Source: a virus
Lineage: Duplodnaviria; Caudoviricetes
DNA length: 64,000 bases
Direction: 5' to 3' (one strand)
Virus record (IMG/VR): IMGVR_UViG_3300010163_000010
Span: 41,183-105,182 of that record
Every line of letters starts with the position of its first letter. Position 1 is the first letter of the stretch. The notes under the pieces are model-generated. The model saw only the letters and a program-made list of their open reading frames with translations, ran no database searches and was not told where the DNA came from. Position numbers and translations under genes: made by a program. This document shows, piece by piece, positions 33,650 to 63,475 of this stretch.

Positions 33650-35437
33650 ATGAGCATGAATTATTTGAAAATGCTTACGGCTGTCGATAAGCTTCCGGTT
33701 CATACCGACATTGAGACTCTTGACATATATTGCGAGTATCTTTTGAATGATACCAGCAAATACATTAACTACGCGAATTTGACTAATCTTCAGGATTACA
33801 TTGAGAGAATGGATCCGAAGGTTTTTATCACCAATGATGCCAAGATGGCTCGGTATGAATTTGTTCGATGCTATCTGGAGGCCCGTATAACTCGTGGTAT
33901 CGTTTCGCGCAAGATGTGTTTGCGTTATATTGCTGAAAACGTTGAGCACCGGTACTGGAAAATTATTCAGCGGGACATCCTGAACTCGATCGAAGAGGAT
34001 TCGCTGAAGAAGAAAGATATCGAGTTCATCAATGACATGGTGTTCGCTCAGTTGAACGTCATGTTCCTGCATAAGTATCGTGCTCCTCTTGTGCGTCTTC
34101 TGGAAGACCTTGAGAACAATGAGTTTGGTAAGACTCCTGAAGACTGCTCGAATGCTATTCAGCTATTCCAATCTGCGCTGAATGAACTCACAACAGCTCA
34201 GCGTAGGTCCAAGCAGGATAACCGGTTTAATCTCACTGACGCGAATCATTTCTATGCCGTTATGTCCGAGGCGTGTGCTCGGTTTTTGTCCGATAGCCAG
34301 TATTGGCAAACTGGCATGCAAGGACTGAACGATATGCTCGGTGGTGGTCTTGAGAATTCCCGTACGTACAATATCATTGGTGCAACGGGTGGTTTTAAGT
34401 CCGGTCTTCTGTTGAACTTGATGAAGATGGTGAAGCTTCGTAATAAGGGTCATGAGCACAAAGATCCCAAGAAGCGTCCGACCATTCTGTTTTTGTCCCA
34501 AGAGAATAATATTTGGGAGACCATTCTCCGTATCTTTAATATTTTTGGTACTACAAAGAACGTGCGTAACTTTACCGCAGCTGAGATTATGGAGATCTTG
34601 GCCAAGGGTGGTTTCTGCCTGGTTAATGATGATCTGGATATCGATATCGAATTCCGGTACTATGGGAACATGGACATTGGTGTCAATGATATCCGCGGTA
34701 TTGTTGAAGAGATCGAGAATGGCAACCGCGAGGTCATCGGTATCTTCCAGGACTATATTGAGAGGCTTCGTCCGCCGGTTATGAGCGTAGATCGCCGCAC
34801 ACAACTCAGCGATTGTTCTAACCAGCTTCATGACCTGGCGATTGACCTGGACATCTGGATTGTCACCGGTTCTCAGTTTAACCGTAATGGTGTTGCGGTT
34901 ATTGAGGATATGCGTGCTTCGAATAAGCATGACATCGGCATGAAGGTTGGCAGCAAGGACATTTCTGAGTCCTTTGGTATGCTCAAGAACTTCGATGTGA
35001 ATATCTGTATTATCATCGAGTATGACGCTAACGAGGAGCGGTTCTGGTTATCGTTCCGACGATTAAAATTCCGCGGTGACGACACCGATAGGTTGAGCTA
35101 CTTTGTTCAACCGTTTGTTGGCAAGAACAGTAAGATTCAGCTCATGGAGGATATTAATCTGGAGCAGCCGTTGTATCGAACCTCTATGATCGATGAGGTC
35201 AACGCCGGAATCATCGATGATGCTGTAGCCATGAAGGATATCACCAGAAGGACCAGAACTATTCTGGAGCCGCTGACCGATGATCCTGAGGATATCGATA
35301 TCGCAAACTTCGTTGGCGAGTATATGAGCGATCTGGCCAAGTCTACCGGTGAACGGTCTGATGGCCGTATCGACGATGTTGATGGGTTCTACGTCTTGAT
35401 TCCTGCACTTCCGGGGATGATGACGATTACCAAATAG
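33650..35437 (+). CDS. dnaB: DnaB-like replicative helicase (jumbo-phage type)
   Basis: TG..GLN.MLGGG, Walker A GATGGFKS, FLSQEN, Walker B QDYI, SQFNR, I.ESF, KFR. Confidence 0.9.
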   Translation: MSMNYLKMLTAVDKLPVHTDIETLDIYCEYLLNDTSKYINYANLTNLQDYIERMDPKVFITNDAKMARYEFVRCYLEARITRGIVSRKMCLRYIAENVEHRYWKIIQRDILNSIEEDSLKKKDIEFINDMVFAQLNVMFLHKYRAPLVRLLEDLENNEFGKTPEDCSNAIQLFQSALNELTTAQRRSKQDNRFNLTDANHFYAVMSEACARFLSDSQYWQTGMQGLNDMLGGGLENSRTYNIIGATGGFKSGLLLNLMKMVKLRNKGHEHKDPKKRPTILFLSQENNIWETILRIFNIFGTTKNVRNFTAAEIMEILAKGGFCLVNDDLDIDIEFRYYGNMDIGVNDIRGIVEEIENGNREVIGIFQDYIERLRPPVMSVDRRTQLSDCSNQLHDLAIDLDIWIVTGSQFNRNGVAVIEDMRASNKHDIGMKVGSKDISESFGMLKNFDVNICIIIEYDANEERFWLSFRRLKFRGDDTDRLSYFVQPFVGKNSKIQLMEDINLEQPLYRTSMIDEVNAGIIDDAVAMKDITRRTRTILEPLTDDPEDIDIANFVGEYMSDLAKSTGERSDGRIDDVDGFYVLIPALPGMMTITK

Positions 35438-35462
35438 ATTTTACAAATAGGAGGAACTACAT

Positions 35463-36113
35463 ATGGCTAATGACAAACCCCTTGTTAAGGCCGAGAACGT
35501 AGAGATCTTTTGGATCGAGTGCAATGAGGAGGCCGCGATCGATGCCAAGAAGTCCGAGGAGGTCACCACGGCATTTCTCAACGAGACACTCCTACCGAAG
35601 CTGACTGCCATGGCTACCCAGCCGTGCATGTGTCAGCAGAAGGAGCTGCAGGAGCGCGCTATCGCTAAGGCCAGGCTGATGCCCAATCTGTCTACAGCTA
35701 GGGCTGTTGCCGTGGAGATCACTCAGGCCGACGTTGATCGATTTGAGTACGGCGTGGTGGTCACGCTTAATGCCGGCATTGATCCTATCATCGTCTGCAT
35801 TATCGAGAGCTGCAAGTGCTGTGGCCGGGTCAGAACCATCCAGGGTTCGGCGAAGGATGTTACACTGCTTGTGGCTCGTGCCGTTACCAGTGCTCTCAAC
35901 GACGGAACTATTCCTATTCCGTATGACATTCAGCCTGCGACTGACGGTACCCCTAAGGTGGATGTGCCCCTTAGCGAGTATGCCATGGAGGACTTGGATA
36001 CCGGCGAGGTTACCGCCTGTGACAGCCTCGGCAAAGCTCTCTTTGGGAATAACAGCACGGAAGACGTTATGATCTCGGATATCGACGAAAAGCCTCCTGC
36101 AGCCGAGAAGTAA
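35463..36113 (+). CDS. Hypothetical protein with Cys pairs
   Basis: 216 aa; PCMC and CKCC; GGAGG RBS. Confidence 0.75.
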   Translation: MANDKPLVKAENVEIFWIECNEEAAIDAKKSEEVTTAFLNETLLPKLTAMATQPCMCQQKELQERAIAKARLMPNLSTARAVAVEITQADVDRFEYGVVVTLNAGIDPIIVCIIESCKCCGRVRTIQGSAKDVTLLVARAVTSALNDGTIPIPYDIQPATDGTPKVDVPLSEYAMEDLDTGEVTACDSLGKALFGNNSTEDVMISDIDEKPPAAEK

Positions 36114-36117
36114 ATAA

Positions 36118-36147
36118 AGTCGGGTGGGCATAATAACCCACCCGACT
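36118..36147. terminator. Terminator between convergent genes
   Basis: AGTCGGGTGGG/CCCACCCGACT. Confidence 0.8.
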
Positions 36148-36148
36148 G

Positions 36149-36604
36149 CTACACGATGTCTTCCCCGACGTGTTTGAGATGCTCATTCCAGTTCTTTTTG
36201 ATGCTTATTGCTGACCGGGTTGCGATCGTATCAAATACAGTACCGATCAACTTCGGCGGAATGTACCGCATAGTTTGCTTCAGGTAGAACTGGGATGGGC
36301 ACTCTCGATCGTTTAGATACATAAGCATCCACCACAAACTCGGGGTATCGTAAATATCAAGACTGAGCAGGTACGGCTTGAACTTATAGTACCTTCGTTC
36401 AGCTAGAGTCACCTTTAACTCCTCGACGTATGGGGCGACAAACTTGTAGTATATCTCGAACAGGTTCTTATCGGGCACTACAAGCGTTCCATCGTCGGTC
36501 GTGCTGTAGAAGGTGATTTTGTTGACGTCATACCGATCCTTGCGGTTAATGATATCGTCAAGAGTCCGGATTACCTTGGTTTGTGTCTCTGTTGGGATGG
36601 CCAT
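36149..36604 (-). CDS. Baseplate wedge protein (T4 gp53/LysM-like)
   Basis: YKFKPYLLSLDIYDTPSLWWMLMYLN resembles the gp53 RPD.IA..YG...YWW.I...N motif. Confidence 0.7.
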   Translation of the reverse strand: MAIPTETQTKVIRTLDDIINRKDRYDVNKITFYSTTDDGTLVVPDKNLFEIYYKFVAPYVEELKVTLAERRYYKFKPYLLSLDIYDTPSLWWMLMYLNDRECPSQFYLKQTMRYIPPKLIGTVFDTIATRSAISIKKNWNEHLKHVGEDIV

Positions 36605-36607
36605 GAA

Positions 36608-37009
36608 TTATCCCTCCTTCTTTTCCTTCTCTTTATCTCGAATAAACATTAGAAATCCCTCATCGACTTTACCGGTAGGGAAAATGAGAAGGAACTCCGC
36701 ACCCTTATTGAATCTGACCGGGCATCGGGTTCCAGCAAGGATTGGAAGTTCCAGCGCGTGGTCTGCTTCAATAAGTCCGGCGGTTACCGGATAGTTTTCG
36801 TTGACAAAATATCCGCTGTTCAGTGTGATTTTGTCCACAGTGTCATCCTGCGGAACAGTTGGCATATATTCAGGAACATTAACCTGCACTTTGAAATTGA
36901 TGCGGTGTGTGATATCTTTATAGTCACGAGCCGCATATGCCTTCATGATAAGGCGGTCTTTCTTGATTACGTGACTCTGTTTACGTCCAAGAGTGGAGTT
37001 CTTTTCCAT
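36608..37009 (-). CDS. Hypothetical late protein (possible baseplate OB-fold)
   Basis: GAAGGTG RBS before ATG 37009; late promoter at 37044-37055. Confidence 0.6.
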   Translation of the reverse strand: MEKNSTLGRKQSHVIKKDRLIMKAYAARDYKDITHRINFKVQVNVPEYMPTVPQDDTVDKITLNSGYFVNENYPVTAGLIEADHALELPILAGTRCPVRFNKGAEFLLIFPTGKVDEGFLMFIRDKEKEKKEG

Positions 37010-37043
37010 ACATGACACCTTCAATCACGATGGTAATTTGATT

Positions 37044-37055
37044 TATAACTTTGTC
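37044..37055 (-). promoter_or_regulatory. Late-type promoter GACA-AAGT-TATA
   Basis: Matches RACA-N4-TATA. Confidence 0.65.
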
Positions 37056-37079
37056 CAAGAGAGGGGTGATACATCACAA

Positions 37080-38411
37080 ATGAGTAAAAAGGGTAAACTC
37101 GGAAGAAAGGTGCAGCCTCCTAAAGATGGTCCTATTCATATAGGTAATAAGATAGAATACAACACGCTTACCCGCAGTCAGAAGAAGGCCGATAAGATCT
37201 TCAGTGACTGGTTTTTTGGAGAAAAGAACTCTGATACTCAGATACTTCGGATAGGTGCAACCGGAGGAAGCGGAAAGTCGTATCTGATCAGTTACTTGCT
37301 GGATGCATACAATTTCGATCAGTCGAATTGTTATGTCATGGCATACACGGGACAGGCCGTGAATGTTCTGCGTAAGAATCAGATTTTGGCCAACACGATT
37401 CACTCCACGGTTATGTATCCCAAAGAGGAACCCGTGTATGATAAAGAGACCGGGAAACCGCTGCTGAAACGTGGTGTACCTGTAACCAAGCAGGTATTTG
37501 TTCCTCTGAGAAGAATCCCTTCGGAGATACAACTTATCATCATTGATGAGGCATCATTCCTCCCTGAGGAACTTGAGAATATCCTGAAGAGATACAATGT
37601 TCCTATTTTGGAGGTAGGCGATCCCATACAGCTTCCTCCTGTTGGGGATAGGCAGGTATTCACCATGGATACTCTTAATTATTTCTTCGATGAAGTAATG
37701 CGTCAAGACCGAGACAGCGGGATCTATGATCTGGCCAATAAACTTCGTCGTGGAGATAATATCTATTTGTCTGATTACCATGATGATATGCTGTTTCTTC
37801 ATGCACAGCAAACGGTGGAAGAGACGTTCTATCGGTTCCTGCCGTTCTTTCGATCTGCGGATATCATCATTACTAATACCAACAAGCAGCGGCAGATTGT
37901 GACTGATTTGTATCGCAAGGTCATCCTGAAGGCTAAGACCCCATATCCGATGAAAGGTGAGAAGGTTATTTGTCGTCGTAATAACCGGCAATTGTTCTTG
38001 GATCAGTATATTCTCACCAATGGTACTATCGGTACCGCGTTGGATACAGTTGGCAGGAGTCAGATAGATAAGCAAGCTGGAACGTTCTTTATGGATTTCC
38101 AGCCGGATGTCACGAAGCATCTTGGGATGTATTATACCAATCTTGTGTGTGACAGCGAATTCTTTCGCAAGAATTATGGTGTGACTGATGATTTGGCATA
38201 TAAGCGGCCTGGAGAGAAGTTTGAGTTCGCACATGCCATCACCACACATCTATCTCAGGGGGCCAGTTTTCCTACGGTGTTGTACATGGATTCATACAAC
38301 CGTGATCCTGAGTATCAGATGCGCATACGTTACACCGCAATAACACGGGCGGAACAGCGAGTGATATATATTCTGCCCTATACACCATATCCAGACTGGG
38401 AGGTATTTTAA
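37080..38411 (+). CDS. dda: Dda/RecD-like SF1B helicase
   Basis: GGSGKS, AYTGQA, TIHS, IIDEAS, GDPIQLPPV, VMRQ, AITTHLSQG, YTAITRA. Confidence 0.9.
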   Translation: MSKKGKLGRKVQPPKDGPIHIGNKIEYNTLTRSQKKADKIFSDWFFGEKNSDTQILRIGATGGSGKSYLISYLLDAYNFDQSNCYVMAYTGQAVNVLRKNQILANTIHSTVMYPKEEPVYDKETGKPLLKRGVPVTKQVFVPLRRIPSEIQLIIIDEASFLPEELENILKRYNVPILEVGDPIQLPPVGDRQVFTMDTLNYFFDEVMRQDRDSGIYDLANKLRRGDNIYLSDYHDDMLFLHAQQTVEETFYRFLPFFRSADIIITNTNKQRQIVTDLYRKVILKAKTPYPMKGEKVICRRNNRQLFLDQYILTNGTIGTALDTVGRSQIDKQAGTFFMDFQPDVTKHLGMYYTNLVCDSEFFRKNYGVTDDLAYKRPGEKFEFAHAITTHLSQGASFPTVLYMDSYNRDPEYQMRIRYTAITRAEQRVIYILPYTPYPDWEVF

Positions 38412-39415
38412 TGGAACTTGAACGTTTGCCGAAGATCTTTTATTACCTGGAGATAGCTAAGGCTGCCTCCAGGCGTGCTACTTGCCTGAGGAGGCACTAT
38501 GGTGTTGTAATCGTGAAAGATGATGAGATCGTCTCCACCGGTTACAACGGTGCTGCTCGTGGCATTGAGGATTGTCTTGAGCGAGGCACCTGCACGCGCA
38601 AAGAACTCGGTATCCCCAGGGGTACCAACTACGAGGCGTGCTTGGCCCGTGATACCAGGATTATGTCTCCGGCTGGATCTCATCTGAGCATTGAGTGGTT
38701 CGCTAATGCTAATGCGGCCGAATTTGACGTATATGCGGTTGATCCTGATACCGGTAAGTTCGTCAGAACTAAGGCCGAGCGTGCATTTAAGACCAAAGAT
38801 GTGATGCAACTAACACGGGTGCATTTTGATCACGGTGGATATGTCGATTGCACCGAGGATCATCGCATCATGATGTCTAACTTCACGTACAAGGCGGCTA
38901 GCGAGCTTAAACTTGATGACTTGGTAATGGGTATGCGCTATGTGTCTGTTATGGGATGTGCGCCTCATGCCGACATTGTTCCGCTTAGGTACACTCATAA
39001 GGTTACTAAGCTTGAACACGTCGATTATCGCGGTCCAGTGTATGACATCACTGTTCCCGAGTATCACAACTTCGCTATCAATCTTGGCGACATGAGCTGC
39101 ATATTTGTGCATAACTGCCGGTCTGTGCACGCAGAAGCCAATGCCTTGATCTCGGCTGGACGCAAGCAGCTTATTCACGGCACGATGTACCTGTATGGAT
39201 GGGACGTTGAAGCTCAGCAAGTTGTTCGTCGGCCTAATGTCTGTATCATGTGCAGGCGGATGATCATTAACTCCGGCCTGGATCAAGTTATCTATGCCGA
39301 TCCTGATGGATTAGCATACAATAAAGAAGTTGGTTATGGCTATCGGGCAGAGAATATCTCTGATTGGGTTAAGGCTGGCGAGCCTGCAATAGAGCCTGGA
39401 AAACCGGGTTATTGA
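38411..39415 (+). CDS. dCMP deaminase (ComEB-like) interrupted by a mini-intein
   Basis: RATCLRR, STGYNG, VHAEANA and CIMC motifs flank an inserted Hint domain. Confidence 0.9.
   Translation: MELERLPKIFYYLEIAKAASRRATCLRRHYGVVIVKDDEIVSTGYNGAARGIEDCLERGTCTRKELGIPRGTNYEACLARDTRIMSPAGSHLSIEWFANANAAEFDVYAVDPDTGKFVRTKAERAFKTKDVMQLTRVHFDHGGYVDCTEDHRIMMSNFTYKAASELKLDDLVMGMRYVSVMGCAPHADIVPLRYTHKVTKLEHVDYRGPVYDITVPEYHNFAINLGDMSCIFVHNCRSVHAEANALISAGRKQLIHGTMYLYGWDVEAQQVVRRPNVCIMCRRMIINSGLDQVIYADPDGLAYNKEVGYGYRAENISDWVKAGEPAIEPGKPGY
38639..39115 (+). mobile_element. Mini-intein (159 aa, no homing endonuclease)
   Basis: Block A CLARDTRI, block B CTEDH, block F VYDITV, block G FVHN/C; removing it restores NYEA-CRSVHAE. 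Confidence 0.9.
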
Positions 39416-39423
39416 TACCTTCC

Positions 39424-39435
39424 AACAACAGTATA
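39424..39435 (+). promoter_or_regulatory. Late-type promoter AACA-ACAG-TATA
   Basis: Matches RACA-N4-TATA. Confidence 0.7.
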
Positions 39436-39466
39436 ACCCAATCGAATAGAAAGGCAGGTATCTAAG

Positions 39467-40063
39467 ATGGCCATGCGCATTGCCGATTTCTGCATTGAAC
39501 AGGTCAAGGCTAAAGGCTGGTTTTCTATTGCCAACCTGTACTTCGATAACTCTTACTGCATCTTCCCATTCACACAGGCCGGCCGCGTGTGTTATTCTCC
39601 GTCGGCCGACGTTTTCTTTTCCACAAGCACCATCGACTCGGTGAATACCCAGCATATGATGTGGTATTATCTGGCTGAGGCAGATGACCGGCATTTGTCT
39701 TTGTACCAGACGTTCACTTGTACCGGTGGGGATCATCTGCAGCATTTCGATTCTCATCTGTTTAACTACTCTCGGCAAACACCTTCTGGGATCGATGAGT
39801 TCCCAGTTCCTACGCTGCCCTCTGAGGCTACGGTAAAGGGATACACTCTGGACGAAAACGGTCAGTATGTCTCTGGCGGCAGGCATGAAGAGATCTGCAT
39901 GGAAGATGACCGCATTATCTCTGCGTTGGATTTGTACCCTGAGCGTAAATCGTTGTATGATTACATTGGCGTTCAGATCGGCGGGTACCAGGAGTTTATC
40001 AAGAATCACGAGGTCTTTTGCAAGGCTGTGAACAAACACTTCAATCTCTCGGACTGTATTTAA
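39467..40063 (+). CDS. Hypothetical protein
   Basis: 198 aa ORF downstream of a late-type promoter. Confidence 0.75.
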   Translation: MAMRIADFCIEQVKAKGWFSIANLYFDNSYCIFPFTQAGRVCYSPSADVFFSTSTIDSVNTQHMMWYYLAEADDRHLSLYQTFTCTGGDHLQHFDSHLFNYSRQTPSGIDEFPVPTLPSEATVKGYTLDENGQYVSGGRHEEICMEDDRIISALDLYPERKSLYDYIGVQIGGYQEFIKNHEVFCKAVNKHFNLSDCI

Positions 40064-40076
40064 ATACACGCCAACA

Positions 40077-40188
40077 AACAGTCATATAACCCTACTGTAC
40101 TATGGTGTGTATTCTGGGAAAGTCTTTTCCGGGTACATATTATAGTAGTGAGATGTAGAGGTGCATAGCCGTTGGCGTGCACCTCTGT
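40077..40188 (+). promoter_or_regulatory. Tandem late and early promoters with a 5' hairpin
   Basis: AACA-GTCA-TATA at 40077-40088; TACATATTATA at 40134-40144; AGAGGTGCA/TGCACCTCT hairpin at 40157-40186. Confidence 0.65.
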
Positions 40189-40243
40189 CTTCTCTTCCCG
40201 TCCACGGATAAGGGTTAGACAAATTTTACAGGAGGAATGATCT

Positions 40244-40879
40244 ATGGGCAAGAAGAACAAAAGCTTGAAGTACTACAGGGACTACGGCAACAAGAAGAAG
40301 AAGTCCAAGAAGAGCAAGGGTGGTAAGAGCTACTACGGCAAGCCCCAGTGCAAGGATGTCAAGCTGACCCTGGACAAGAAGGATGTCAAGGAGAACCGGA
40401 AGATCGTCATGAGCCCGGTCGACATCCCGGACAAGTTCGCCAAGAATCGGGCCAAGTGCAACCACGCCGGCCAGATGATGAGTGTCGACGACTACAAGAG
40501 CCTCACGCCGAACTATGCGGCGTACACCCCGATGCTGGACTGGGCGGTTAAGAAGTACGGTGCCAACCACGTCCACGTCTGCCGGAGCTGCTTCGACGTT
40601 GTGGTCGATCGCGACGTTGTCGACAGCGACAATGTCATCGACGCCTTGACCACGCTGTACGTGGCTGTGAACGTCGCCGTGAGCAACAAGCGGATGAAGG
40701 ATGATGAGGTGAAGTCGTTCAACAAGATGAAGGGCCAGCTGGATGACTTCCGCCAGCTGATCGAGGTCTTGGGCGAGATCAAGCTCTGCTCTCAGCAGAA
40801 CGGCTCGGGTTCGAATCCGACAGGCGTCACCGCCGGCACGCCGGTTAACGCTAACGACGGCAGCGTGTTCATGCGCTAG
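40244..40879 (+). CDS. Basic protein with a putative Zn site, probably highly expressed
   Basis: Lys-rich N-terminus; CNH...CRSC; strong codon bias; AGGAGG RBS. Confidence 0.85.
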   Translation: MGKKNKSLKYYRDYGNKKKKSKKSKGGKSYYGKPQCKDVKLTLDKKDVKENRKIVMSPVDIPDKFAKNRAKCNHAGQMMSVDDYKSLTPNYAAYTPMLDWAVKKYGANHVHVCRSCFDVVVDRDVVDSDNVIDALTTLYVAVNVAVSNKRMKDDEVKSFNKMKGQLDDFRQLIEVLGEIKLCSQQNGSGSNPTGVTAGTPVNANDGSVFMR

Positions 40880-40892
40880 ACATGCATACAAA

Positions 40893-51445: not shown

Positions 51446-52654
51446 ATGACCGAAGAAGAGATCTCCACCCTCATCCCTAAGACGACAACCCCCAGAGGCA
51501 TCATCACCACCACCGACGAGGTCAAAGCTGCCACTACACGTAAGCTGCTGTTCGTCGGCACTGGCGACGGCGGCTGCAATATCGCCTCTGACATCGGTGG
51601 TGCGTTGGCTCAGAGCGGAGCGCGCGTGATCGCCTACAATACCTGCACTCGGGCGATGAACGATGTGTCCGCCCATCTGAAGATCTTCCCCGATGGCGAG
51701 GACGGCTCTGGTAAGGCGAGGAGTTACTCCAAGGATATCTTCAAGAACGGTGTCTACAAGGATATCATTAAAGGTATCCGCACGCTGTCTACGCGGGACG
51801 GCCCGTTCGAGTATATCGTGGTCTGCAGCACTGCCGATGGCGGCACCGGATCTGGTATTTCTCCGGTATGTGCCAAGCTGATCAAGGATAATGTCGACGT
51901 GCCGGTCATGATCCTCGGTGTCTATCCGGCTACGTGGGAGGATGCCATTGCGCAGTTCAATGCGCTGCAGTGGCAGGCTGAGGTAGAGAAGACCGGTCTT
52001 CCCTATTTCGTTCTCGATAACGATCAGCCTGAGACCAGCAAGAAGATTATTCACAAACAGATCAACAGCTACGCGGCCAGAATGATGTCGCTGTTAGCCG
52101 GTCAGGAGTTCGGGAATACCGGAATCAGCATGATCGATGACCGCAACCTGTTTTCGCTGCTGGCTCCCAGATCTGGTCAGAATCACCGGGCTCTTATCGC
52201 GATTTCCGCCGAGCGCCTGCGCAACGACCAGTCGCTGGATGACTATGTCGAGAAGATGCTGCGCAGCTGCAACCAGCCAATGCCTTCCAGTATCGGCGGG
52301 ATCGGCATATTCGTTCGCGGCCCGCATGACCTGATCGAGCGGATCGATACCAGTCTGCAGGGTTTCCAGGATAAGTACGGCCGGGCCATCCTGCACTTCG
52401 CCCACATCGAGGAAGGCGACGATATCAAAGTCGCGATTCTCCTGACCGATTGCGACGAGCCCAGCCAGCGGCTGCTCGAGATGAAGAATCGCTATGATGA
52501 TGTGATGGTATGCCGGTCGTCCGCCAAGTCGATTCTCGACGACTTCGATTTGGATATGGATGACGATCCGATGGATATGGGCATGAGCATTGTTCAGCGG
52601 CCCACGGATATCGCGGACAAGAACATCGACATCTCTGCACTGGATCTTCTGTAA
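51446..52654 (+). CDS. phuZ: Tubulin/FtsZ-family protein (PhuZ/TubZ-like)
   Basis: VGTGDGGCNI, DGSGK, GGTGSG tubulin signature, LDND, IDDRNL; acidic tail ending IDISALDLL. Confidence 0.85.
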   Translation: MTEEEISTLIPKTTTPRGIITTTDEVKAATTRKLLFVGTGDGGCNIASDIGGALAQSGARVIAYNTCTRAMNDVSAHLKIFPDGEDGSGKARSYSKDIFKNGVYKDIIKGIRTLSTRDGPFEYIVVCSTADGGTGSGISPVCAKLIKDNVDVPVMILGVYPATWEDAIAQFNALQWQAEVEKTGLPYFVLDNDQPETSKKIIHKQINSYAARMMSLLAGQEFGNTGISMIDDRNLFSLLAPRSGQNHRALIAISAERLRNDQSLDDYVEKMLRSCNQPMPSSIGGIGIFVRGPHDLIERIDTSLQGFQDKYGRAILHFAHIEEGDDIKVAILLTDCDEPSQRLLEMKNRYDDVMVCRSSAKSILDDFDLDMDDDPMDMGMSIVQRPTDIADKNIDISALDLL

Positions 52655-54154: not shown

Positions 54155-54156
54155 TC

Positions 54157-55160: not shown

Positions 55161-55167
55161 GATTAAT

Positions 55168-55276: not shown

Positions 55277-56695
55277 ATGATTTCGGATTTTAATAAGTAT
55301 ATCCGAGAGACTCAGGGGAAGAATGAGAAGAACCTGCTTAGCACGGTAACATCCATGCCCCAGTATCCGACGGGATATATGTACTTGGACTACGGCACCG
55401 GCAGCTACTTGACTGTCTGCGATGAGAACGAGTGCCCGTTGTACCAGTACCACAACATCGGTATCAGTTGTGGGTCGGTCAACACCATTATCTCCAAGTC
55501 TCAGGGCGGCAAGACGACTCTCACCGTATCTATGGCCGTGGCTATCATCGAAGCCTTCGTTAATAAGCTGCTCTATGAGGCATGTATGCGAGATGTAATC
55601 GCAACCGCAAAACTTAAGAATCTTCCTGAGTATAGTGGGTACCCGTTTATCCAGATTCTTGATACTGAAAAGACGCTGCCCATCGATTACGCCAAGAAGG
55701 TCGCTCGGTATACCAACAAGCTGACTCAGCAGCACATTTCGATTAACCCCATCACTACAGATACCGATCTCATGGTTGCTTTGGACAAGCATGTTCGATT
55801 CAAGGTTGAGCATATGTCGAAGACTCCCATGCCTATGTTGGATATCTACGGCAATGTGATATATGAGTATCCGCCAACAGTCATGATTGTGGACTCTATG
55901 TCCCAGCTGCTATTGGAGAACTGCGACGATCCGACAATGATTGCAAAGGCCAAGAAGGGTGGTATTCTTGATATATATGCAACGGCCACACAGAATACGG
56001 CTGGTGCACGTAGAGCAAAGATTATCACAGCTCTGTACTCACAACTGGTCAACTATGCCAAGAAGTATAACATCATCATCTTCCCGATCTGTCATATCAA
56101 CAAGATGCTGCCGGTGAATGGTATTCCCGTTAAGCAGTACCGAGGGCTGCGTGCTGGTGAAACTATTGGTGGCGGAGAGAAAGCAATCTTCCTGGCCTCT
56201 ACTATTCTACGTCTGGATGTCATCAAGAGTGTTGGCACTGAGAGTTCTACGGCTGTGAACCTTGGCGATGGTATCACTGGTCACATTGCGATCGCATCCT
56301 GGATTAAGTCCAAATCGAACTCTAAGGCTAACCGATGTCAGCTGGTCTATACTAACATTGCCGGCTATGACGCCACATTGTCAAACTTGTGGTATGCTAA
56401 GGAGACTGGGGATCTTCCGAAGAGTGGCAATTTTTTCTATATTCCCGGGTATGAGCAGTATAAGTTCACCATGAAGAACTACCGGGATGTATTTGGCGAG
56501 CATCCGGAGATGTTTGGCGGATTGTATGATCTGCTCAGGGTTAAGTGTTCCAAAATGTTAGATAATCCCGAGCAAGCGATCTATGCTGAGCGGAAACTCA
56601 TTAATGATCTTCGCGATGATATTCATGAGGAATTTGATCGCGGCGATGCTATGGATATGGATGATATGTTCGCAAGTGTATTCAATGCGAACTGA
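55277..56695 (+). CDS. uvsX: RecA/UvsX-like recombinase (jumbo-phage type)
   Basis: YPTG..YLD, Walker A SQGGKTT, LDTE, Walker B IVDS, CHIN, GGGE..F, KSK; promoter variant AACA-ATAC-CATA at 55241-55252. Confidence 0.85.
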   Translation: MISDFNKYIRETQGKNEKNLLSTVTSMPQYPTGYMYLDYGTGSYLTVCDENECPLYQYHNIGISCGSVNTIISKSQGGKTTLTVSMAVAIIEAFVNKLLYEACMRDVIATAKLKNLPEYSGYPFIQILDTEKTLPIDYAKKVARYTNKLTQQHISINPITTDTDLMVALDKHVRFKVEHMSKTPMPMLDIYGNVIYEYPPTVMIVDSMSQLLLENCDDPTMIAKAKKGGILDIYATATQNTAGARRAKIITALYSQLVNYAKKYNIIIFPICHINKMLPVNGIPVKQYRGLRAGETIGGGEKAIFLASTILRLDVIKSVGTESSTAVNLGDGITGHIAIASWIKSKSNSKANRCQLVYTNIAGYDATLSNLWYAKETGDLPKSGNFFYIPGYEQYKFTMKNYRDVFGEHPEMFGGLYDLLRVKCSKMLDNPEQAIYAERKLINDLRDDIHEEFDRGDAMDMDDMFASVFNAN

Positions 56696-56706
56696 GGAAG
56701 CTGCGA

Positions 56707-57243: not shown

Positions 57244-57252
57244 GAGACAACT

Positions 57253-57585: not shown

Positions 57586-58021
57586 GTATCTTACCATTGA
57601 ATATTCTGCAAAAGTTGCAGAAGATGTCTGGAATGTTCGCACATGTGATCAATGCGGTGCTGTTGTTGACATGAATTGGGATCTCTTTGAGCGGCATAAG
57701 AGAGTTTCCGAGACTAGACTTAGTCATTATTGTGAGCTTCGGCATGGGGCTATAAACAAGTGTATCTGTGACCGGTGTACTAAAGAGTACATGGATCGCT
57801 TAAATTCTTGGGGCCATGCTGAGGGCGATTATGTGTTCACCTTTAAGTATGGTCATATATTCACCGATGAAGTGATTGACGAAGGTGACTCCGATAAGCA
57901 TGACTGGAGATTAAACCTTGATGGGATAGAAGATCGAGAAAAGCGTGAGGCTATTGTTCAGGGGACAGCTAAAACGGAAAAATATTCAATCGAATCTATG
58001 TATCGTCGACAAGAGAATTAA
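57578..58021 (+). CDS. Zn-finger protein, tandem paralog 3
   Basis: EDVWNVRTCDQC...ICDRCT. Confidence 0.75.
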   Translation: MDKYLTIEYSAKVAEDVWNVRTCDQCGAVVDMNWDLFERHKRVSETRLSHYCELRHGAINKCICDRCTKEYMDRLNSWGHAEGDYVFTFKYGHIFTDEVIDEGDSDKHDWRLNLDGIEDREKREAIVQGTAKTEKYSIESMYRRQEN

Positions 58022-58049
58022 GCTTGTGTAGATTCATTGTGAATTCATC

Positions 58050-58060
58050 CATATATTATA
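58050..58060 (+). promoter_or_regulatory. Early-type promoter CATATATTATA
   Basis: Matches the recurring motif. Confidence 0.7.
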
Positions 58061-58086
58061 CATAGAGTACTGGAGGTGAGTTCACA

Positions 58087-58797
58087 TTGAGAATGATAAC
58101 TCTGGACGAAGCGGTGGCTATAACCGATGACATGTTCACGAATTATGTGGAACCGGTTGGGCTGTCGCTTATGTCTGGAGAAGTCCCACAGATTATGTTC
58201 TCGATCAATCGTCGAGGTACTAAGGAGAAGGATTGGCTGGCTCAGGTTCGATTTAAGAACACGTTGGCAATATCGGTATTTCGCTGTGATGTTTATTTGG
58301 AGGATGTTTTTCGTTTGTGCCGGGATTGCAGACTCTGGCTTATAACGAGAGAAGTTTTTCAAGTGGCCGTTTTGTATGCGATGCTGCATCCGCTGTATCA
58401 GAGTCAATACGTAGACTTCGGGTTTGATGTAAATATCGACTACGAATCTATGATGGCCTCAGCCGGACGGCAAGCATACGCCTTTATGTCAAAGCATGTT
58501 CCGATTGTCGATCTGGTTCAGCCAATCGTTCTTGAGATCTTTCGATATCATATGATGATTTTTACGAATCATCATGAGGGGGAATTACACTCTACGCGAA
58601 CGCTGCGAGATCTGCAGAAGCAGTATGAGCAGATTATGCTGGAGAAGTATCGAGGGGCTTATTGTATGGCCCGGTATCGCAAAGCCTGGACATCTCTTGT
58701 AGATGCTGATGGGTTTATTGTGTTGGAGAAAAAGACTGCCGGAAGAACGATCTACAGTAATGATCGAATAGAAGACCAAACCGACCATATACTATAA
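58087..58797 (+). CDS. Early hypothetical protein
   Basis: 236 aa; GGAGGTG RBS; C-terminal DADGFIVL. Confidence 0.75.
   Translation: MRMITLDEAVAITDDMFTNYVEPVGLSLMSGEVPQIMFSINRRGTKEKDWLAQVRFKNTLAISVFRCDVYLEDVFRLCRDCRLWLITREVFQVAVLYAMLHPLYQSQYVDFGFDVNIDYESMMASAGRQAYAFMSKHVPIVDLVQPIVLEIFRYHMMIFTNHHEGELHSTRTLRDLQKQYEQIMLEKYRGAYCMARYRKAWTSLVDADGFIVLEKKTAGRTIYSNDRIEDQTDHIL
58786..58796 (+). promoter_or_regulatory. Early-type promoter CATATACTATA
   Basis: Matches the recurring motif; upstream of the RNAP subunit. Confidence 0.7.
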
Positions 58798-58825
58798 CCG
58801 TGTACTAAGGAAGGAGTGAAGTGTT

Positions 58826-60856
58826 ATGGGTAAAGGTAAAATGTCCAATCAGGAAAAGGCAATCCTGAAAAGAGCCAAGACGTTTCACTATGAGACGGAT
58901 CGTCTTGGTGCAAGTTCGTTGATGATCCAGCAGTCCCACACCAACAGCAGCCGCTGCATTATGTCGGCTAACCAGCTTCGCGATGCTGTCAGCATTAAGG
59001 ATCCCGAGCAGCCGCTGGTTCCCACTGGGTTCGAGAACGTTCTCGCGGGGTTCTCGCACATGCTCAATCCGGCTGACGCTGACTACGAGGTTGTGGCGAA
59101 GTTCGTGAAGAATGACTACAACTACGTTATTATCGGGTTTGATAAGAAGCATCGGCGCTATCATGCCTGGAAACGGGTGGAGATGGAGGAGCATTCGGAG
59201 GGGTTCTCTACCCGGTATAATAACAACTTTATCGATTCCCTTGAAGTTGGAGATAAGATCCACAAGGGCGATATGGTTCAGAAGTCCACAAACTTCGATA
59301 AGTCCATGAACTACGCCTATGGCAAGAATGTCAACGTTGTCTATATGGTAACGACCAATGTCTATGAGGATGGCATTTTGGCCATGAATGGCGTCGATCA
59401 GATGTTCAACACCTTTAGGTCATATACACTGGAGATCAATCTTGCCGATAACGAAATCCCGATTAACTGGTATGGCGATAAGGATCACTACCAGGGGATT
59501 CCGATGGTTGGCGAGAAGTGTCGTAAGGGCTATGCGGCTATTGTTCGGCGGGCCGATAACTACAAAGCCATGTATGACCTGAAAGCCAAGCGTATGCGGC
59601 ACATCGAGCGTGGGGACCGGCCGTACTATATGCATGGCCGAGTGATCGATATCGATATTCTCACAAACAAAGACCCCGCAAAGATGCTGGAGATTGGTGC
59701 AACACATCAGATCAACCAGTTGTACCAAGAGCAGCAGGATTACTATCGCAACCTCTACCAGTATATGCAGGATATTGTAGATGGTGCTGACGATGGGGGG
59801 TACACCTATACCGACGACTTCAGCATTATCTGTGAAGAGGCGCATGATTTCGTAGACTCCTCGGCATTCATGGCTGATAATAAGGATACCATCTATGGTA
59901 ATACCAAGATCATACTCCACATTCTTGATGAGGAGAAGATGATCGTTGGTTCTAAGTTTGTCGGCCGTTGCGGGAACAAGGGGGTCATTGCCAAGATCCT
60001 TCCGCCCGAGAAATCCTGGCACATGGAGGATGGCACGCCTATTCACTTTGTAGTAGCTACGCTTGGTGTCATTGGCCGATTGAATCAGTCTCAGCTATAT
60101 GAGCATTCGGCCAATGAGTTAGGTGCTACAGCAGTAAAAGCTATGAAGCAGACCAATAGCCTTAAGGAGAAAGGCAAGATTATCTATAAACTGCTGAAGT
60201 ATCTGAATCCAGACGAGGCTAAAGCGTTCAAGGCTTATTATGAGGCCCTTACTGATGATGAGAAGGCGAAGTACTGCAAGAAGCGGGAGCGTCTTGGCAT
60301 TCGGATTGTCCAAGACCCGATAGACAACGCCAACATTCTTGACTTTGCTGAAGCCTATGAGACGTTTCCGCCTAACTATCAGCACGTTATCTTTGAGGAT
60401 GGAACCAAGTCCTTGCGCAAGGTTCTGTGTGCGAAGATGTTCTATGTGCGATTGAAACAGGACCCGCTGGAAAAGTATTCTTCTCGGTCGAAGGGGCCGG
60501 TGAATCCGCTAACTACGTTACCGTCGAAGTCTAGTCTGCATAAGAAGTTCTTGGCTCCTCATTCCGATGTCCCGGTTCGGTTTGGCGAGATGGAGCTGGA
60601 GCTCTTGATGACCATGTGCAATCACCCGGCGGCTGTTGCTGACTTTATGACTGAAAACTCCACCAGCTATGAGGCTAAGTTGGCTTTGGCTCGGCATGAA
60701 TATATGGGTAACTTTGATGAAGAGGCTGATATGTCTGAGGTTGTGATGACGAGCAAGAAGAATGTTGAGTTGATCACGGCCTATATCGAGCCGCTTGGAA
60801 CGGAGATTGAGCTCGAGATTGAAACCGCTCCTGACGATGAGTACTTTGAGGCGTAA
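58826..60856 (+). CDS. Split RNA polymerase beta subunit, C-terminal half (non-virion RNAP type)
   Basis: NSSRCIM..NQ, YGKN, YEDG, GSKFVGRCGNKGVI, GRLN, RLKQ, RFGEME; early promoter. Confidence 0.92.
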   Translation: MGKGKMSNQEKAILKRAKTFHYETDRLGASSLMIQQSHTNSSRCIMSANQLRDAVSIKDPEQPLVPTGFENVLAGFSHMLNPADADYEVVAKFVKNDYNYVIIGFDKKHRRYHAWKRVEMEEHSEGFSTRYNNNFIDSLEVGDKIHKGDMVQKSTNFDKSMNYAYGKNVNVVYMVTTNVYEDGILAMNGVDQMFNTFRSYTLEINLADNEIPINWYGDKDHYQGIPMVGEKCRKGYAAIVRRADNYKAMYDLKAKRMRHIERGDRPYYMHGRVIDIDILTNKDPAKMLEIGATHQINQLYQEQQDYYRNLYQYMQDIVDGADDGGYTYTDDFSIICEEAHDFVDSSAFMADNKDTIYGNTKIILHILDEEKMIVGSKFVGRCGNKGVIAKILPPEKSWHMEDGTPIHFVVATLGVIGRLNQSQLYEHSANELGATAVKAMKQTNSLKEKGKIIYKLLKYLNPDEAKAFKAYYEALTDDEKAKYCKKRERLGIRIVQDPIDNANILDFAEAYETFPPNYQHVIFEDGTKSLRKVLCAKMFYVRLKQDPLEKYSSRSKGPVNPLTTLPSKSSLHKKFLAPHSDVPVRFGEMELELLMTMCNHPAAVADFMTENSTSYEAKLALARHEYMGNFDEEADMSEVVMTSKKNVELITAYIEPLGTEIELEIETAPDDEYFEA

Positions 60857-60860
60857 GAAA

Positions 60861-60896
60861 TGTGGGAGGGGCTTCGGCTCCTCCCACACCAGTTTT
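60861..60896 (+). terminator. Rho-independent terminator
   Basis: TGTGGGAGGGGC-TTCG-GCTCCTCCCACA. Confidence 0.8.
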
Positions 60897-60914
60897 ATGA
60901 AGATTTAATTTATC

Positions 60915-60925
60915 TATATACTATA
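60915..60925 (+). promoter_or_regulatory. Early-type promoter TATATACTATA
   Basis: Matches the recurring motif. Confidence 0.75.
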
Positions 60926-60970
60926 GATGTAGTCACAAGGTGACAAATATACTCAAGGAGGTATAACGTT

Positions 60971-63475
60971 ATGAGTAGGAAGAAGCACAGACTCAACAAT
61001 AACAGGCGTAACGGGTCGAGCAGCCCGACCTTTGGCGGGGGAGATCCCGCGAGTATCTTGTCCACGACTGCTCCGCGGATGGTCGTCGACACCACCGATC
61101 CCAGCAGTCCGATGGCCGACATTCTGAACACGCACACCCAGGGCGTAGAAGACTGGTCTATGAAAAAGGATTCTGATGGGTTCTGCGTGCTGCAGTTGAC
61201 GGCTGAGGGCTTTGAGGCCTTGGATGAGGTTCGGGTTCGTCGGTCCAAGAAGTTCTCCAAGAAGGTTGAGGACATCGTTGTCAACCAAGACCCCTATGAG
61301 AACTACAGCCCCAATGCCGCTATCACCATGCTCGACCAGGCGGTTGGTATGGTTAAGGGCGGCAAGTACAAGAAGGCTCTGGATAAGAGGGACAATAACA
61401 TCATCGATGAGTTGACCGATACGTTCCTGAACATGGAGTCGACCTTGCCGAACTTTGATCGGGTGTGCGAGGCGGTTCTGAAGTTGATTCGGGTCGGTAA
61501 AAGCTTCTATGAGTACTATCCGGATGACCTGTATATTGACAATGAACTGTACGATCGGGTGCTCGCAAAGTATCTCGGTTATGGTTTCACCGAGCCCACT
61601 GGATATGTACAGGCGGGGAAGAGCAAGACTGCCATCAGGTACCCGCTTTTGCACAATAACATGGACAAGAGCTATGTTCTGCGGAGCGGTGACGATATTC
61701 CGGAAGGCGTTAAGGAAACCACTAAGGTTGAAGATTGGCTGATTCGATGCTATAAGGTCATTGGGGCCACTTCTGAGACCGAGGTGGAGCTGGAGCTCTC
61801 TCCGAAGATCGACGGCATCTCGGTTAATGGCACTATCAGAACTGGCAAGAAGTGTGATGCTCTGTTCAATCCGCAGACTCGCGGTGATGAGACTGACTCC
61901 ATGAAGATTATTGGCATGGATGGCATTCAGTTAGGCTACGGCCGTGATAAAGAGATCGAATTCGGTCTGCAGCTTGAAGCCTTCGTGACCAATGATGACA
62001 TGAGAGGCGTGGCTGAGTATCTGAAGCTTGATCGACCTTATGCCAGCAACAGACATGCAGCTTCCGGAATCATCAGTCGGCTGTGTGCCAAGGAAGACGA
62101 TGAGCTGCTCCCGTTCCTCAGCTTCTATCCGATTGAGACGATGGGATTGGATAAGAGCTATGTTGAGCGGATGAAGTTCATCAAGGATTTTGAGGTTGTT
62201 CCGAGTGATATGATTGAGCGGAAGATTATTAAGGGCAATCTCAAAGAGCTGCTGGATAAGATCGAAAAGCAGTTCAGCAAGTTCGCCGAGAAGCGTGAGA
62301 GTTTGAGTTATGCGATCGATGGCATGGTTATCACATTTGTTGATGATGATTATCAGAAAGCGTTGAGCCGCAATGGCAGAACCAATAAGTATCAGTTGGC
62401 GTTGAAGTTTGATCCGGCCAGTGCTGTTGGTGTCGTCAAGGGCATTCACCTGGATTCTGGTAATAAAGGTTTTCGGACTATTCAGGTGGATCTGAAGCAT
62501 CCGGTGTTCTTGGATGGCGTTCGGTATGATCATGTACAAGTAGGCTCTGCGGCTTTGTTTGAGGACTTGCATCTACGGGAAGATTCGACCGTAAATGTTC
62601 ACAGGGTCGGCGATGTCATCCCGGCTATCAGTGTGATTCATGCCGGTAATGGGAAATTGCTGAATCTTCCTGAGCTTTGTCCGCAGTGTGGGAAATCCTT
62701 GACGATCAAGAACAAGAAGCTGTACTGCCCGAACATTGATTGCCGAGGAAATCTCTCTGGCCGAATTGCCGGGTTCTTGACTGGCATTGGTATGATCGGT
62801 TATGCGGATACGTTCATTAACAAGATGATCGATACCTGTAAGGTAACTTCTCTTGCTGATCTCTTTGAGCTTACAGAGGATACCTTCAAGAGGAAGGGCT
62901 TGACAGGAAAGATCTATATGGAATTCCCGGCTGCATTGCAGGAGGCCATCTCGAAAACTGATGACTTCAAGATCGTTGGCTCTATCGGTATTCCGGACAT
63001 CGGCCCGGCTCGGGCCCGCGACATGTTGGAGGGCTGCGGCGGCTGGGATTACTTCCTTATGTATGTGAATGGTAAACTTGATCGCGGTGAACGTAATAGT
63101 GCAAGAAACTCTCTTGCTGGATTAACTAAAAACATTCAAAAGCTCCTGGATCCCCGGTTGTTTGCACACATTAACGAATGCAAGCCGATCATCACGTATA
63201 ACTTTAACACTTTACGTGTTGGTCACACAGGAGTTACCCTTAGTGATGATGTGGTTAAGGTGTGTCGGGATATTGGTGCGATTGTCGTTGATGGTAAAGC
63301 ATTCGATGTATTGATTACAGGCGACTATGCGTCTACTAGTGAGAAGATGAGGGTCGCTGAGAAAAATAATATCGATATTTATGAAAGTAACGATTTCATT
63401 CAACATTATAGCACTGTGGCTGGTTCTATTACTCTTACCGATAGTGGGCATTGGGTACAGCAGAAACAAGCCTAG
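60971..63475 (+). CDS. ligA: NAD+-dependent DNA ligase with an N-terminal extension
   Basis: YY......D..YD, KIDG adenylation motif, TRGD, SNRHAASG, IDGMV, ALKF, GDVIP, CPQC...C....C Zn finger, HhH, BRCT-like end. Confidence 0.92.
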   Translation: MSRKKHRLNNNRRNGSSSPTFGGGDPASILSTTAPRMVVDTTDPSSPMADILNTHTQGVEDWSMKKDSDGFCVLQLTAEGFEALDEVRVRRSKKFSKKVEDIVVNQDPYENYSPNAAITMLDQAVGMVKGGKYKKALDKRDNNIIDELTDTFLNMESTLPNFDRVCEAVLKLIRVGKSFYEYYPDDLYIDNELYDRVLAKYLGYGFTEPTGYVQAGKSKTAIRYPLLHNNMDKSYVLRSGDDIPEGVKETTKVEDWLIRCYKVIGATSETEVELELSPKIDGISVNGTIRTGKKCDALFNPQTRGDETDSMKIIGMDGIQLGYGRDKEIEFGLQLEAFVTNDDMRGVAEYLKLDRPYASNRHAASGIISRLCAKEDDELLPFLSFYPIETMGLDKSYVERMKFIKDFEVVPSDMIERKIIKGNLKELLDKIEKQFSKFAEKRESLSYAIDGMVITFVDDDYQKALSRNGRTNKYQLALKFDPASAVGVVKGIHLDSGNKGFRTIQVDLKHPVFLDGVRYDHVQVGSAALFEDLHLREDSTVNVHRVGDVIPAISVIHAGNGKLLNLPELCPQCGKSLTIKNKKLYCPNIDCRGNLSGRIAGFLTGIGMIGYADTFINKMIDTCKVTSLADLFELTEDTFKRKGLTGKIYMEFPAALQEAISKTDDFKIVGSIGIPDIGPARARDMLEGCGGWDYFLMYVNGKLDRGERNSARNSLAGLTKNIQKLLDPRLFAHINECKPIITYNFNTLRVGHTGVTLSDDVVKVCRDIGAIVVDGKAFDVLITGDYASTSEKMRVAEKNNIDIYESNDFIQHYSTVAGSITLTDSGHWVQQKQA

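Follow-up and report, generated by a model that had tools for sequence, protein, structure and literature searches.

Why should three otherwise unrelated proteins of one phage share the same eight-residue peptide? The question is raised by a 64,000-nucleotide stretch of DNA (the window), which comprises bases 41183-105182 of the single 105,182-bp virus record IMGVR_UViG_3300010163_000010 (46% GC). An earlier note, made from the letters alone, had pointed to the motif D-x-D-G-F-x-V-L in a DnaB-like replicative helicase, in an NAD-dependent DNA ligase and in a third early protein, and had taken it for a docking or targeting motif addressed to a phage hub protein, with the caveats that D-x-D-G is a common hairpin turn and that the three copies use the same codons. 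We find that the motif is very probably a docking or targeting tag that acts at the level of the peptide. This part of the proposal is borne out by conservation, functional enrichment and terminal placement, whereas no hub or receptor was found with clamp models or in two proteins encoded beside a tagged polymerase subunit. The record is rated 41% complete by CheckV, and a PHROG scan of its 102 crude open reading frames (ORFs) found pieces of a split multisubunit RNA polymerase, topoisomerase II subunits, a UvsX-like recombinase, a Dda-like helicase, thymidylate synthase, dihydrofolate reductase (DHFR), a tubulin and a 4,552-aa tail protein; judged from its sequence, it is a fragment of a jumbo phage.

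Translation confirmed that the three peptides are in frame in long ORFs. Their positions in the window are given below, together with the scores of a position-specific scoring matrix (PSSM) that is described further on.

33650..35437, + strand: gene of the DnaB-like replicative helicase, with the divDNAB domain (PF20307) at residues 167-514 and a variable tail at residues 515-595
35375..35398, + strand: tag DVDGFYVL in the C-terminal tail of the helicase, residues 576-583 of 595, PSSM score 24.9
58087..58797, + strand: gene of a 236-aa protein, with a TTG start, just upstream of the gene of an RNA polymerase beta-type subunit
58702..58725, + strand: tag DADGFIVL near the C-terminus of the 236-aa protein, residues 206-213, PSSM score 29.3
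60971..63475, + strand: gene of the NAD-dependent DNA ligase, with an ATG start, AAGGAGG 8 nt upstream and an N-terminal extension of about 246 residues
61169..61192, + strand: tag DSDGFCVL in the N-terminal extension of the ligase, residues 67-74 of 834, PSSM score 22.7

The copies in the helicase and the ligase are outside the catalytic regions, as had been claimed, because the domain limits given by Pfam and PHROG exclude the tag residues (in the ligase the adenylation domain is at residues 250-482 according to Pfam, and the match to PHROG 3869 covers residues 247-814). The 236-aa protein has no Pfam or PHROG match, and tblastn gave no match to it in 50,697 phage records; the alignment of its orthologues begins at the same residue.

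A six-frame regular-expression search of the entire record returned exactly three matches to D.DGF.VL, all of them in the three carriers of the window, and five matches to the looser pattern D.DG[FY].[VI]L that the earlier note had suggested for a proteome-wide search, so that two new carriers were added upstream of the window. The numbers expected from composition in the crude proteome of 33,716 aa are 0.0023 for the strict and 0.011 for the looser pattern, and in 1,500 composition shuffles the maxima were 1 and 2, respectively. The two new carriers, and a protein of the window in which the PSSM found a weaker copy, are the following.

Genome 32442-32747, - strand: 101-aa protein upstream of the window, with the tag 4 residues from the C-terminus
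Genome 39637-40263, - strand: 208-aa protein upstream of the window, with the tag at residue 5
5923..6780 of the window, + strand: gene of a PHROG 21037 protein (function unknown), which bears a weaker N-terminal copy
5971..5994 of the window, + strand: weaker tag DRQGFYSL at residue 17 of this 285-aa protein, PSSM score 17.8

Relatives of this phage are found in IMG/VR, on contigs of 62-288 kb with DnaB proteins that are 57-79% identical and with GC contents of 37-51%. Three near-complete relatives, G001 (231 kb), G004 (260 kb) and G005 (288 kb), were fetched entire; the present record is referred to as G000 where they are compared. A degenerate DNA pattern for the tag matched 7, 3, 7, 8 and 13 times in five relatives, while the reversed pattern did not match at all. 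A 13-column PSSM was then built from the regex seeds (34 segments), and this gave 6, 16, 23 and 17 matches in G000, G005, G004 and G001, i.e. 62 in total, whereas reversed proteins gave 0 matches and shuffled proteins no more than 0.33. The copies are distributed over 6 of 102 crude ORFs in G000, 14 of 340 in G005, 20 of 299 in G004 and 14 of 265 in G001; these per-genome carrier counts are approximate because the genes were called by a crude longest-ORF heuristic that makes errors in small or overlapping genes and in some starts (for example, a tagged 121-aa protein of G001 is absent from the PSSM scan). The resulting consensus is [YR]-R-D-x-[DE]-G-F-[IVFYL]-x-L-[IKRV]-[PRK]-[RKT]. The recurrence of the tag on unrelated proteins is thus far beyond chance, as is typical of a short linear motif, and chance is excluded as its origin.

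The position of the copies within the proteins is also far from random. No more than 30 residues separate 38 of the 62 copies from a terminus (12.4 expected), and the corresponding number for 50 residues is 47 (20.2 expected), a value that none of 20,000 permutations reached. The closer end is the C-terminus for 41 copies and the N-terminus for 21, and some copies are on internal linkers rather than on termini. With respect to flexibility, the tag is outside the Pfam domains of the helicase and the ligase, the flanks are less conserved than the tag itself, and one structural model, that of protein Y discussed below, covers a tag.

The tag is conserved in regions that otherwise drift. In the DnaB tail it is kept in 7 of 7 IMG/VR orthologues, and it is present within the last 110 residues in 112 of the 120 best database homologues of DnaB (58-100% identity). 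In the DnaB alignment the mean column identity falls from 0.79 in the core to 0.57 in the part of the tail that precedes the tag, rises to 0.74 in the tag and drops to 0.51 after it. When orthologue families were defined as reciprocal-best-hit groups, nine families were found to be fully tagged: DnaB, the 236-aa protein, the ligase and the PHROG 21037 protein (4/4 each), the PHROG 2943 polymerase subunit, OG79, the reverse transcriptase of a diversity-generating retroelement (DGR) and its Avd protein (3/3 each), and a PC4-like protein (2/2). The exact place may shift, as in the ligase orthologues where the tag is found at residues 20, 28 and 35 of their own N-terminal extensions (67 in this record), or it may be retained, as in the PHROG 21037 protein whose orthologues in G001, G004 and G005 have the tag at the same N-terminal place with scores of 18.1, 22.6 and 35.2, respectively. 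In other families the tag is variable, namely in GyrA (1/4), an SF2 helicase (2/3), OG22 (2/4) and OG16 (2/4). Conservation among orthologues, which the earlier note had named as a point that could speak against the motif, is therefore clear in all three original carriers, and it is accompanied by gain and loss between lineages, again as seen in short linear motifs.

There is a side observation to be made on the eight DnaB homologues out of 120 that have no tag (among them P0122, P0124, P0127, P0129-P0131 and P0147). Their tails are longer (the proteins have 607-664 aa), and some of them have in common a pattern of an acidic residue plus Phe that is followed by a basic stretch. On sequence grounds this pattern may be a different tag of a sister group. 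The contigs that encode these eight homologues are absent from IMG/VR.

The evidence also points to the peptide rather than to the DNA that encodes it. The three window copies do have the codons GAT-NNT-GAT-GGG-TTY in common, as the earlier note had observed, and GGG is used for 5 of the 6 tag glycines in this record as opposed to 13% of all its Gly codons. GGG and GGA are generally favoured before Phe and Tyr codons in these genomes (GGG accounts for 25% of 173 such non-tag cases in this record). The two copies upstream of the window have GAC and GGC codons instead, and in the relatives every synonymous codon for Asp, Gly, Phe and Leu occurs at the tag positions. The copies are found on both strands and always in the coding frame. 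Moreover, 48 different octapeptides were counted in the 112 tagged DnaB homologues, and D, G, an F or Y, and L are retained in almost every one of them. As all synonymous codons are used, as the relatives range from 37 to 51% GC and as the octapeptides vary, we conclude that selection acts on the peptide and not on the DNA.

Every carrier to which Pfam or PHROG assigns a function acts on nucleic acids. The list includes the DnaB-like helicase, an SF2 (ResIII/DEAD) helicase, the NAD ligase, GyrA, RNase H (PF00075), the PC4-like DNA-binding protein, a Bro-N/KilAC protein, at least 8 HNH endonucleases, and the reverse transcriptases and Avd proteins of DGRs; the PHROG 2943 polymerase subunit has three tandem copies in its C-terminal tail in 3 of 3 relatives. 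Enrichment among DNA-metabolism proteins, on which the earlier note had made its idea depend, was evaluated in G004. The best PHROG matches of its 20 carriers fall into 'DNA, RNA and nucleotide metabolism' (12) and 'transcription regulation' (1), and 7 have no category. A control was drawn at random from the non-carriers (150 of 189 eligible ORFs of at least 100 aa, ORFs across 20-kb segment boundaries having been excluded before sampling), and it contained 23 DNA/RNA, 8 head, 2 lysis, 4 other and 1 moron proteins. The DNA/RNA category is thus represented by 12 of 20 carriers versus 23 of 150 non-carriers (Fisher P = 4e-5). If only proteins with a category are considered, 13 of 13 carriers versus 23 of 38 non-carriers are nucleic-acid proteins (P = 0.005), and structural, lytic or metabolic proteins, to which 15 of the 38 non-carriers belong, are not found among the 13 carriers.

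Two observations on the carriers of the relatives deserve mention. G001, G004 and G005 each have a DGR (e.g. L064:4893-7122) in which the genes of the reverse transcriptase and of Avd are about 0.4 kb apart and both proteins are tagged. In G004 (L057:9668-13164) the large subunit of topoisomerase II is split into two ORFs that match positions 445-586 and 23-445 of PHROG 543, and between them there is a 263-aa ORF that is the reciprocal-best match of an HNH endonuclease of G001; from the sequence, the split looks like the insertion of a homing element.

The tag appears to be a property of one clade. Among cultured phages the helicase is best matched by AR9, PBS1 and BpSp, with which it shares 26-27% identity in alignments that end before the tail; a megablast search with the helicase gene found no match in 50,697 phage records. 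A database search gave 275 DnaB homologues at E <= 1e-20, and by this sequence criterion the clade appears to be widespread in metagenomes. The clade belongs to the phiKZ/AR9-type group. The DNA pattern of the tag had 0 matches in each of five cultured jumbo phages with multisubunit RNA polymerases (phiKZ, AR9, BpSp, LPJP1 and phiR1-37). As to the hosts, a DnaB homologue that is 60% identical (P0137) is named 'uncultured Duncaniella sp.' at NCBI, and this label hints at gut Bacteroidota (Muribaculaceae).

The observations that carry our conclusion are the recurrence of the tag, its terminal bias, its conservation amid drifting flanks, its restriction to nucleic-acid proteins, its gain and loss, and its restriction to the clade. 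What might such a tag do? It would consist of a D-x-D-G turn, which is followed by a short hydrophobic strand and capped by basic residues or proline, and unrelated nucleic-acid proteins would carry it on flexible tails at either terminus and in some cases on internal linkers. We infer that it binds a protein, that there is a single receptor for all copies and that this receptor is located on DNA. The parallel with the tails that bind clamps, with PIP boxes and with localisation signals makes one shared receptor most likely; it could be encoded by the phage or, less likely, by the host. Binding to it would hold or gather the clients at the sites of replication, recombination and repair of phage DNA, and selfish homing endonucleases and DGR proteins would have acquired the tag for the same access. 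By analogy with known systems, this 'tool-belt' version, in which the tag docks on a shared DNA-bound platform, is the one we tentatively prefer, even if we hold it with much less confidence than the existence of the tag itself. It fits the list of clients, the triple tag of the polymerase subunit and the fact that protein Y is linked to this subunit.

A receptor was looked for in the surroundings of the polymerase subunit. The gene order in the relatives is ligase, protein X, protein Y and the tagged polymerase subunit (PHROG 2943); X, Y and the polymerase subunit are missing from the present record because the contig ends 525 bp after the ligase gene. The gene of X was located between those of the ligase and Y as follows.

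L077:12018-12674, + strand: gene of protein X in a relative
L043:11912-12646, + strand: gene of protein X in a relative
L069:6840-7673, - strand: gene of protein X in a relative

X is well conserved (45 homologues). Its AF2 model has a pLDDT of 84.6 and consists of two alpha-beta3-alpha halves, which match single-chain IHF (VIA Z 7.2, 126 aligned residues) and tandem HU-fold proteins (Z 8.6-10.8). According to the model, X is a single-chain tandem HU/IHF-like DNA-binding protein and not a clamp. One X homologue (P0025) has a tag in a C-terminal extension, and in two relatives about 630 nt between the ligase and X (L077:11375-12017 and L043:11287-11911) have no convincing ORF.

Y, whose gene is directly upstream of that of the tagged polymerase subunit, is a fast-evolving protein with 27 homologues in a full HMMER search. 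In 28 aligned members near-invariance is confined to the columns of G, F and L in a central [HY]-D-x-[DE]-G-F-x-x-L, i.e. in the tag. The model of Y (pLDDT 84.1) has two domains and a linker, and the tag is at the start of the linker; the mean pLDDT is 90 at residues 121-130, then 65 and 52 across and after the tag, and values at residues 139-145 are below 50. Foldseek gave no match to Y at E <= 0.001, and the best VIA rows were weak RNase-H-like folds (Z <= 4.5). Co-folding of residues 1-124 and 150-279 of the G001 Y protein with the DnaB tail (residues 540-595) gave a score of 0.00 in two runs without controls, a result that has no bearing either way.

Other candidates for the receptor were considered and set aside. 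OG65 and OG66, which might have been a hidden clamp, are a virion structural protein and the head protease, respectively, and OG63 is an antisense ORF-calling artefact over X. A UvsX-like recombinase acting as the hub through an FxxA-like contact was an idea only; the protein has no tag, and no obvious matching oligomerisation motif was seen.

Several points weigh against a common DNA platform. The Pfam models PF02916 (T4 gp45), PF00705 (PCNA) and PF00712 (beta clamp) had no match in any of five records, namely this one and 4 relatives. No clamp was among the best fold matches of X and Y, and a divergent clamp or one of the host may have escaped these searches; neither the clamp models nor the fold comparison of X and Y brought up a receptor. 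In addition, many DNA-acting proteins are untagged. Those in the sample from G004 comprise 4 RNA polymerase subunits, the primase, the Dda-like helicase, both pieces of the PHROG 2927 DNA polymerase, SbcC, RusA, an exonuclease and 3 HNH endonucleases, and the UvsX-like recombinase has no tag either; replisome proteins as a whole are therefore not marked by the tag. The disorder of the tails is deduced from sequence drift only. Finally, the fact that the reverse transcriptase, Avd and many homing endonucleases have tag copies of their own fits the idea of a separate address on each polypeptide at least equally well.

It is instructive to compare the tag with the known systems in which clients are recruited by a short peptide. 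Clamps, SSB tails and importins all organise DNA transactions through shared client tags. In phage T4 (and RB69) the gp43 polymerase, gp33, gp55 and the ligase dock on the gp45 clamp by a short terminal peptide, which in the polymerase is in the C-terminal tail. The similarity is that one short terminal peptide is found on several unrelated DNA and transcription proteins of a phage and serves one platform. The differences are that the peptide is another one, that gp45, PCNA or a beta clamp was not detected with the Pfam models, and that the clients here include DnaB, GyrA, the DGR reverse transcriptase, Avd and many HNH endonucleases. A second comparison can be made with the PIP box of PCNA clients (consensus QxxLxxFF) and the beta-clamp motif of bacterial proteins (QL[SD]LF). 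These are short linear motifs at disordered termini of polymerases, ligase, RNase H, helicases and nucleases, and the clamp-binding motif has reportedly been borrowed by selfish elements (IS transposases), as the tag may have been. Unlike them, the tag has no Gln and no paired aromatics, and it does not match the clamp consensus. To our knowledge, few shared-tag codes are known in phages beyond T4.

The jumbo phages themselves offer further comparisons. In a comparative study (PMC7824862), the phiKZ-type (group 1) jumbo phages are described as having no classical clamp. Chimalliviruses have Rhc, an RNase H fused to a clamp-derived domain, which binds the DNAP-C subunit (PMC13648698, PMC13648687); Rhc resembles our proposal in that jumbo phages without a clamp have a non-canonical subunit for processivity or as a platform, and a shared client tag is not described in the portions of these reports that were read. 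A difference is that the RNase H of the present clade has only 210-240 aa, for which reason there is little room for a clamp domain, and that at least one of these RNases H is itself tagged.

The T4-type capsid targeting sequence, an N-terminal leader of proteins inside the virion with the cleavage motif of the head protease at its end, was also considered as a model and rejected: 41 of the 62 copies are nearer to the C-terminus, none of the carriers has a head or tail PHROG, and the carriers are replication, repair and mobile-element enzymes.

Among the alternatives, the one that survives best is that the tag is a linear address or import signal whose receptor brings proteins to, or keeps them at, a DNA compartment or zone built by the phage. 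Eukaryotic nuclear localisation signals (NLSs) are basic, portable linear addresses that are found on many nucleic-acid proteins, often at a terminus and sometimes in several copies. The tag has the portable linear character in common with them and differs in being an acidic turn plus a hydrophobic strand, with no compartment or importin analogue known. We consider this explanation rather unlikely, but it has several points in its favour: all function-assigned carriers are nucleic-acid proteins and none is structural or metabolic; HNH endonucleases, the DGR reverse transcriptase, Avd and small DNA-binding proteins each have a copy of their own; several copies per protein, terminal placement and easy gain and loss suit a signal peptide; and genes for a tubulin/PhuZ-like protein and, as in the nucleus-forming phages, for split multisubunit RNA polymerases are present in the record. 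A likeness to the PicA/Imp1 system of chimalliviruses can be seen in that both concern jumbo phages with split multisubunit RNA polymerases that selectively bring DNA enzymes to phage DNA.

Against this stands the lack of a tag on the RNA polymerase subunits, the primase and the UvsX-like recombinase, all of which should need entry as well. The frame of nucleus-forming phages, in which the earlier note had placed the motif, receives no support from sequence either. The chimallin profiles PHROG 4795 and PF25677 gave no match in five records, this one and 4 relatives of which 3 are at least 99% complete (very remote homologues could escape such a search), and phmmer searches with phiKZ gp54 and gp69 (PicA) found nothing in this record or in 3 relatives (best E-values 0.86 and 0.67). 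A 686-aa protein that was considered as a possible shell was not retained; none of the scores in the ESM Atlas look-up exceeded 0.79. The cultured phages nearest to the clade are of the AR9/PBS1 type, and a paper on PBS1-type phages describes them as encoding multisubunit RNA polymerases but not chimallin (10.1101/2023.02.24.529968). Furthermore, according to a 2025 review (PMC12908238) it is the folded surface, and not a terminal signal, by which cargo is recognised in chimalliviruses, whereas we are dealing with a linear terminal peptide, in a clade for which no compartment is known; phiKZ, by our pattern search, has no tag. The stronger statement, that the tag is a true linear 'nuclear localisation signal' of chimallin-less gut jumbo phages with an unseen compartment or exclusion zone, is somewhat more doubtful still. 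If it were true, homing endonucleases and DGRs would have copied the address in order to enter the DNA compartment.

It is improbable that the tag has no shared docking receptor at all and that it makes a direct, AT-hook-like contact with DNA or RNA or is a site for a protease, chaperone or modifier, e.g. a degron. The basic residues that usually flank the tag (R before it; K, R or P after it) could be brought up for a contact of this kind, and the restriction to nucleic-acid proteins would suit either a contact or a common regulatory switch. However, conservation is highest at two acidic residues, Gly, Phe and Leu, which make an unlikely surface for nucleic acids and a typical turn-plus-strand ligand, and no phage protease or modifier is linked to the tag; a head maturation protease is encoded near the polymerase locus, as part of the virion module.

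D-x-D-G turns are frequent in proteins, and a few loose regex matches are plainly unrelated (e.g. an internal N-T-D-G-Y-V-L-M in an 881-aa protein), so that the tag could in principle be a common beta-hairpin turn that arose by chance or in unrelated folds, with no shared function. This explanation is already refuted statistically and we give it hardly any weight: 3-5 matches were observed where 0.002-0.06 are expected, 62 PSSM matches compare with 0 in reversed proteins, and the terminal bias, the functional enrichment and the 112 of 120 DnaB homologues all speak against it, which disposes of the first of the two initial caveats. The second caveat, a nucleotide-level signal (a recombination site, a homing site or an RNA element of which the peptide would be a by-product), has the codons common to the window copies and the GGG excess to recommend it, and it is the least credible of all since it is already contradicted by the synonymous variation in the relatives, the GAC and GGC codons of the upstream copies and the confinement of copies on both strands to the coding frame.

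We return to the tag as a docking or targeting peptide. No description of such a jumbo-phage tag was found in the literature searched, supplements apart; the principle is known, while the peptide, the set of clients and the absence of a recognisable platform are new. The tag would provide a handle for the organising centre of replication in uncultured phages, be it a DNA platform or an import or targeting receptor, and it would supply the list of clients of this centre, several of which have no functional assignment. This list amounts to about 14-20 tagged proteins per genome, including the replicative helicase, the ligase, the polymerase subunit and selfish elements, and in the latter the tag appears to show how mobile elements adapt to their phage host. 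If the tag is portable, it could be used to deliver proteins to phage DNA.

A few further features of this DNA are worth recording. The RNase H gene of the window (903-1625) encodes a C-terminal tail D-D-P-E-M-F-M-Q-L-V-P-R-R (1575-1598, + strand), which by sequence looks like a decayed copy of the tag (PSSM score 6.1, below the threshold); the RNase H orthologue of G004 has a scoring copy (14.1) at the same place.

The UvsX-like recombinase (window 55277-56695, + strand) ends in an acidic tail, A-M-D-M-D-D-[MLI]-F plus a few residues, that is kept in 4 of 4 orthologues, and tails with acidic residues and an aromatic one also end X and many Y proteins of the relatives. We speculate that these tails may be a second, SSB-tail-like class of docking motif in the same phages.

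The promoter-like sequence TATATACTAT was found, with at most one mismatch, at 14 sites, 13 of them on the + strand, as compared to 3.96 expected. Early promoters had been ascribed to all three original carrier genes. A putative promoter of this kind is present at the helicase (site at 33614) and the ligase (60915), where, as with other genes, TATATACTAT is located about 35-55 nt upstream; the gene at 58087 has only a poorer look-alike. Another site (58786) precedes the RNA polymerase subunit gene at 58826, and one (940) is within the RNase H ORF.

The tubulin/FtsZ-family gene of the window (51446-52654, + strand; Pfam Tubulin 3.6e-10, PHROG 4733 'tubulin PhuZ' 8.6e-8) is present in a phage in which chimallin is not detectable. 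A 429-aa protein encoded at 30314-31603 of the window (+ strand) has a PemK/MazF-like domain at residues 41-122 (PF02452, 2.5e-6) and no assignment over its remaining length. Upstream of the window, the 4,552-aa ORF (genome 17486-31144, - strand; L002:2487-16145) has tape-measure and tail-protein PHROG matches, and it adjoins the gene of a PAAR-like protein and that of the small tagged 101-aa protein.

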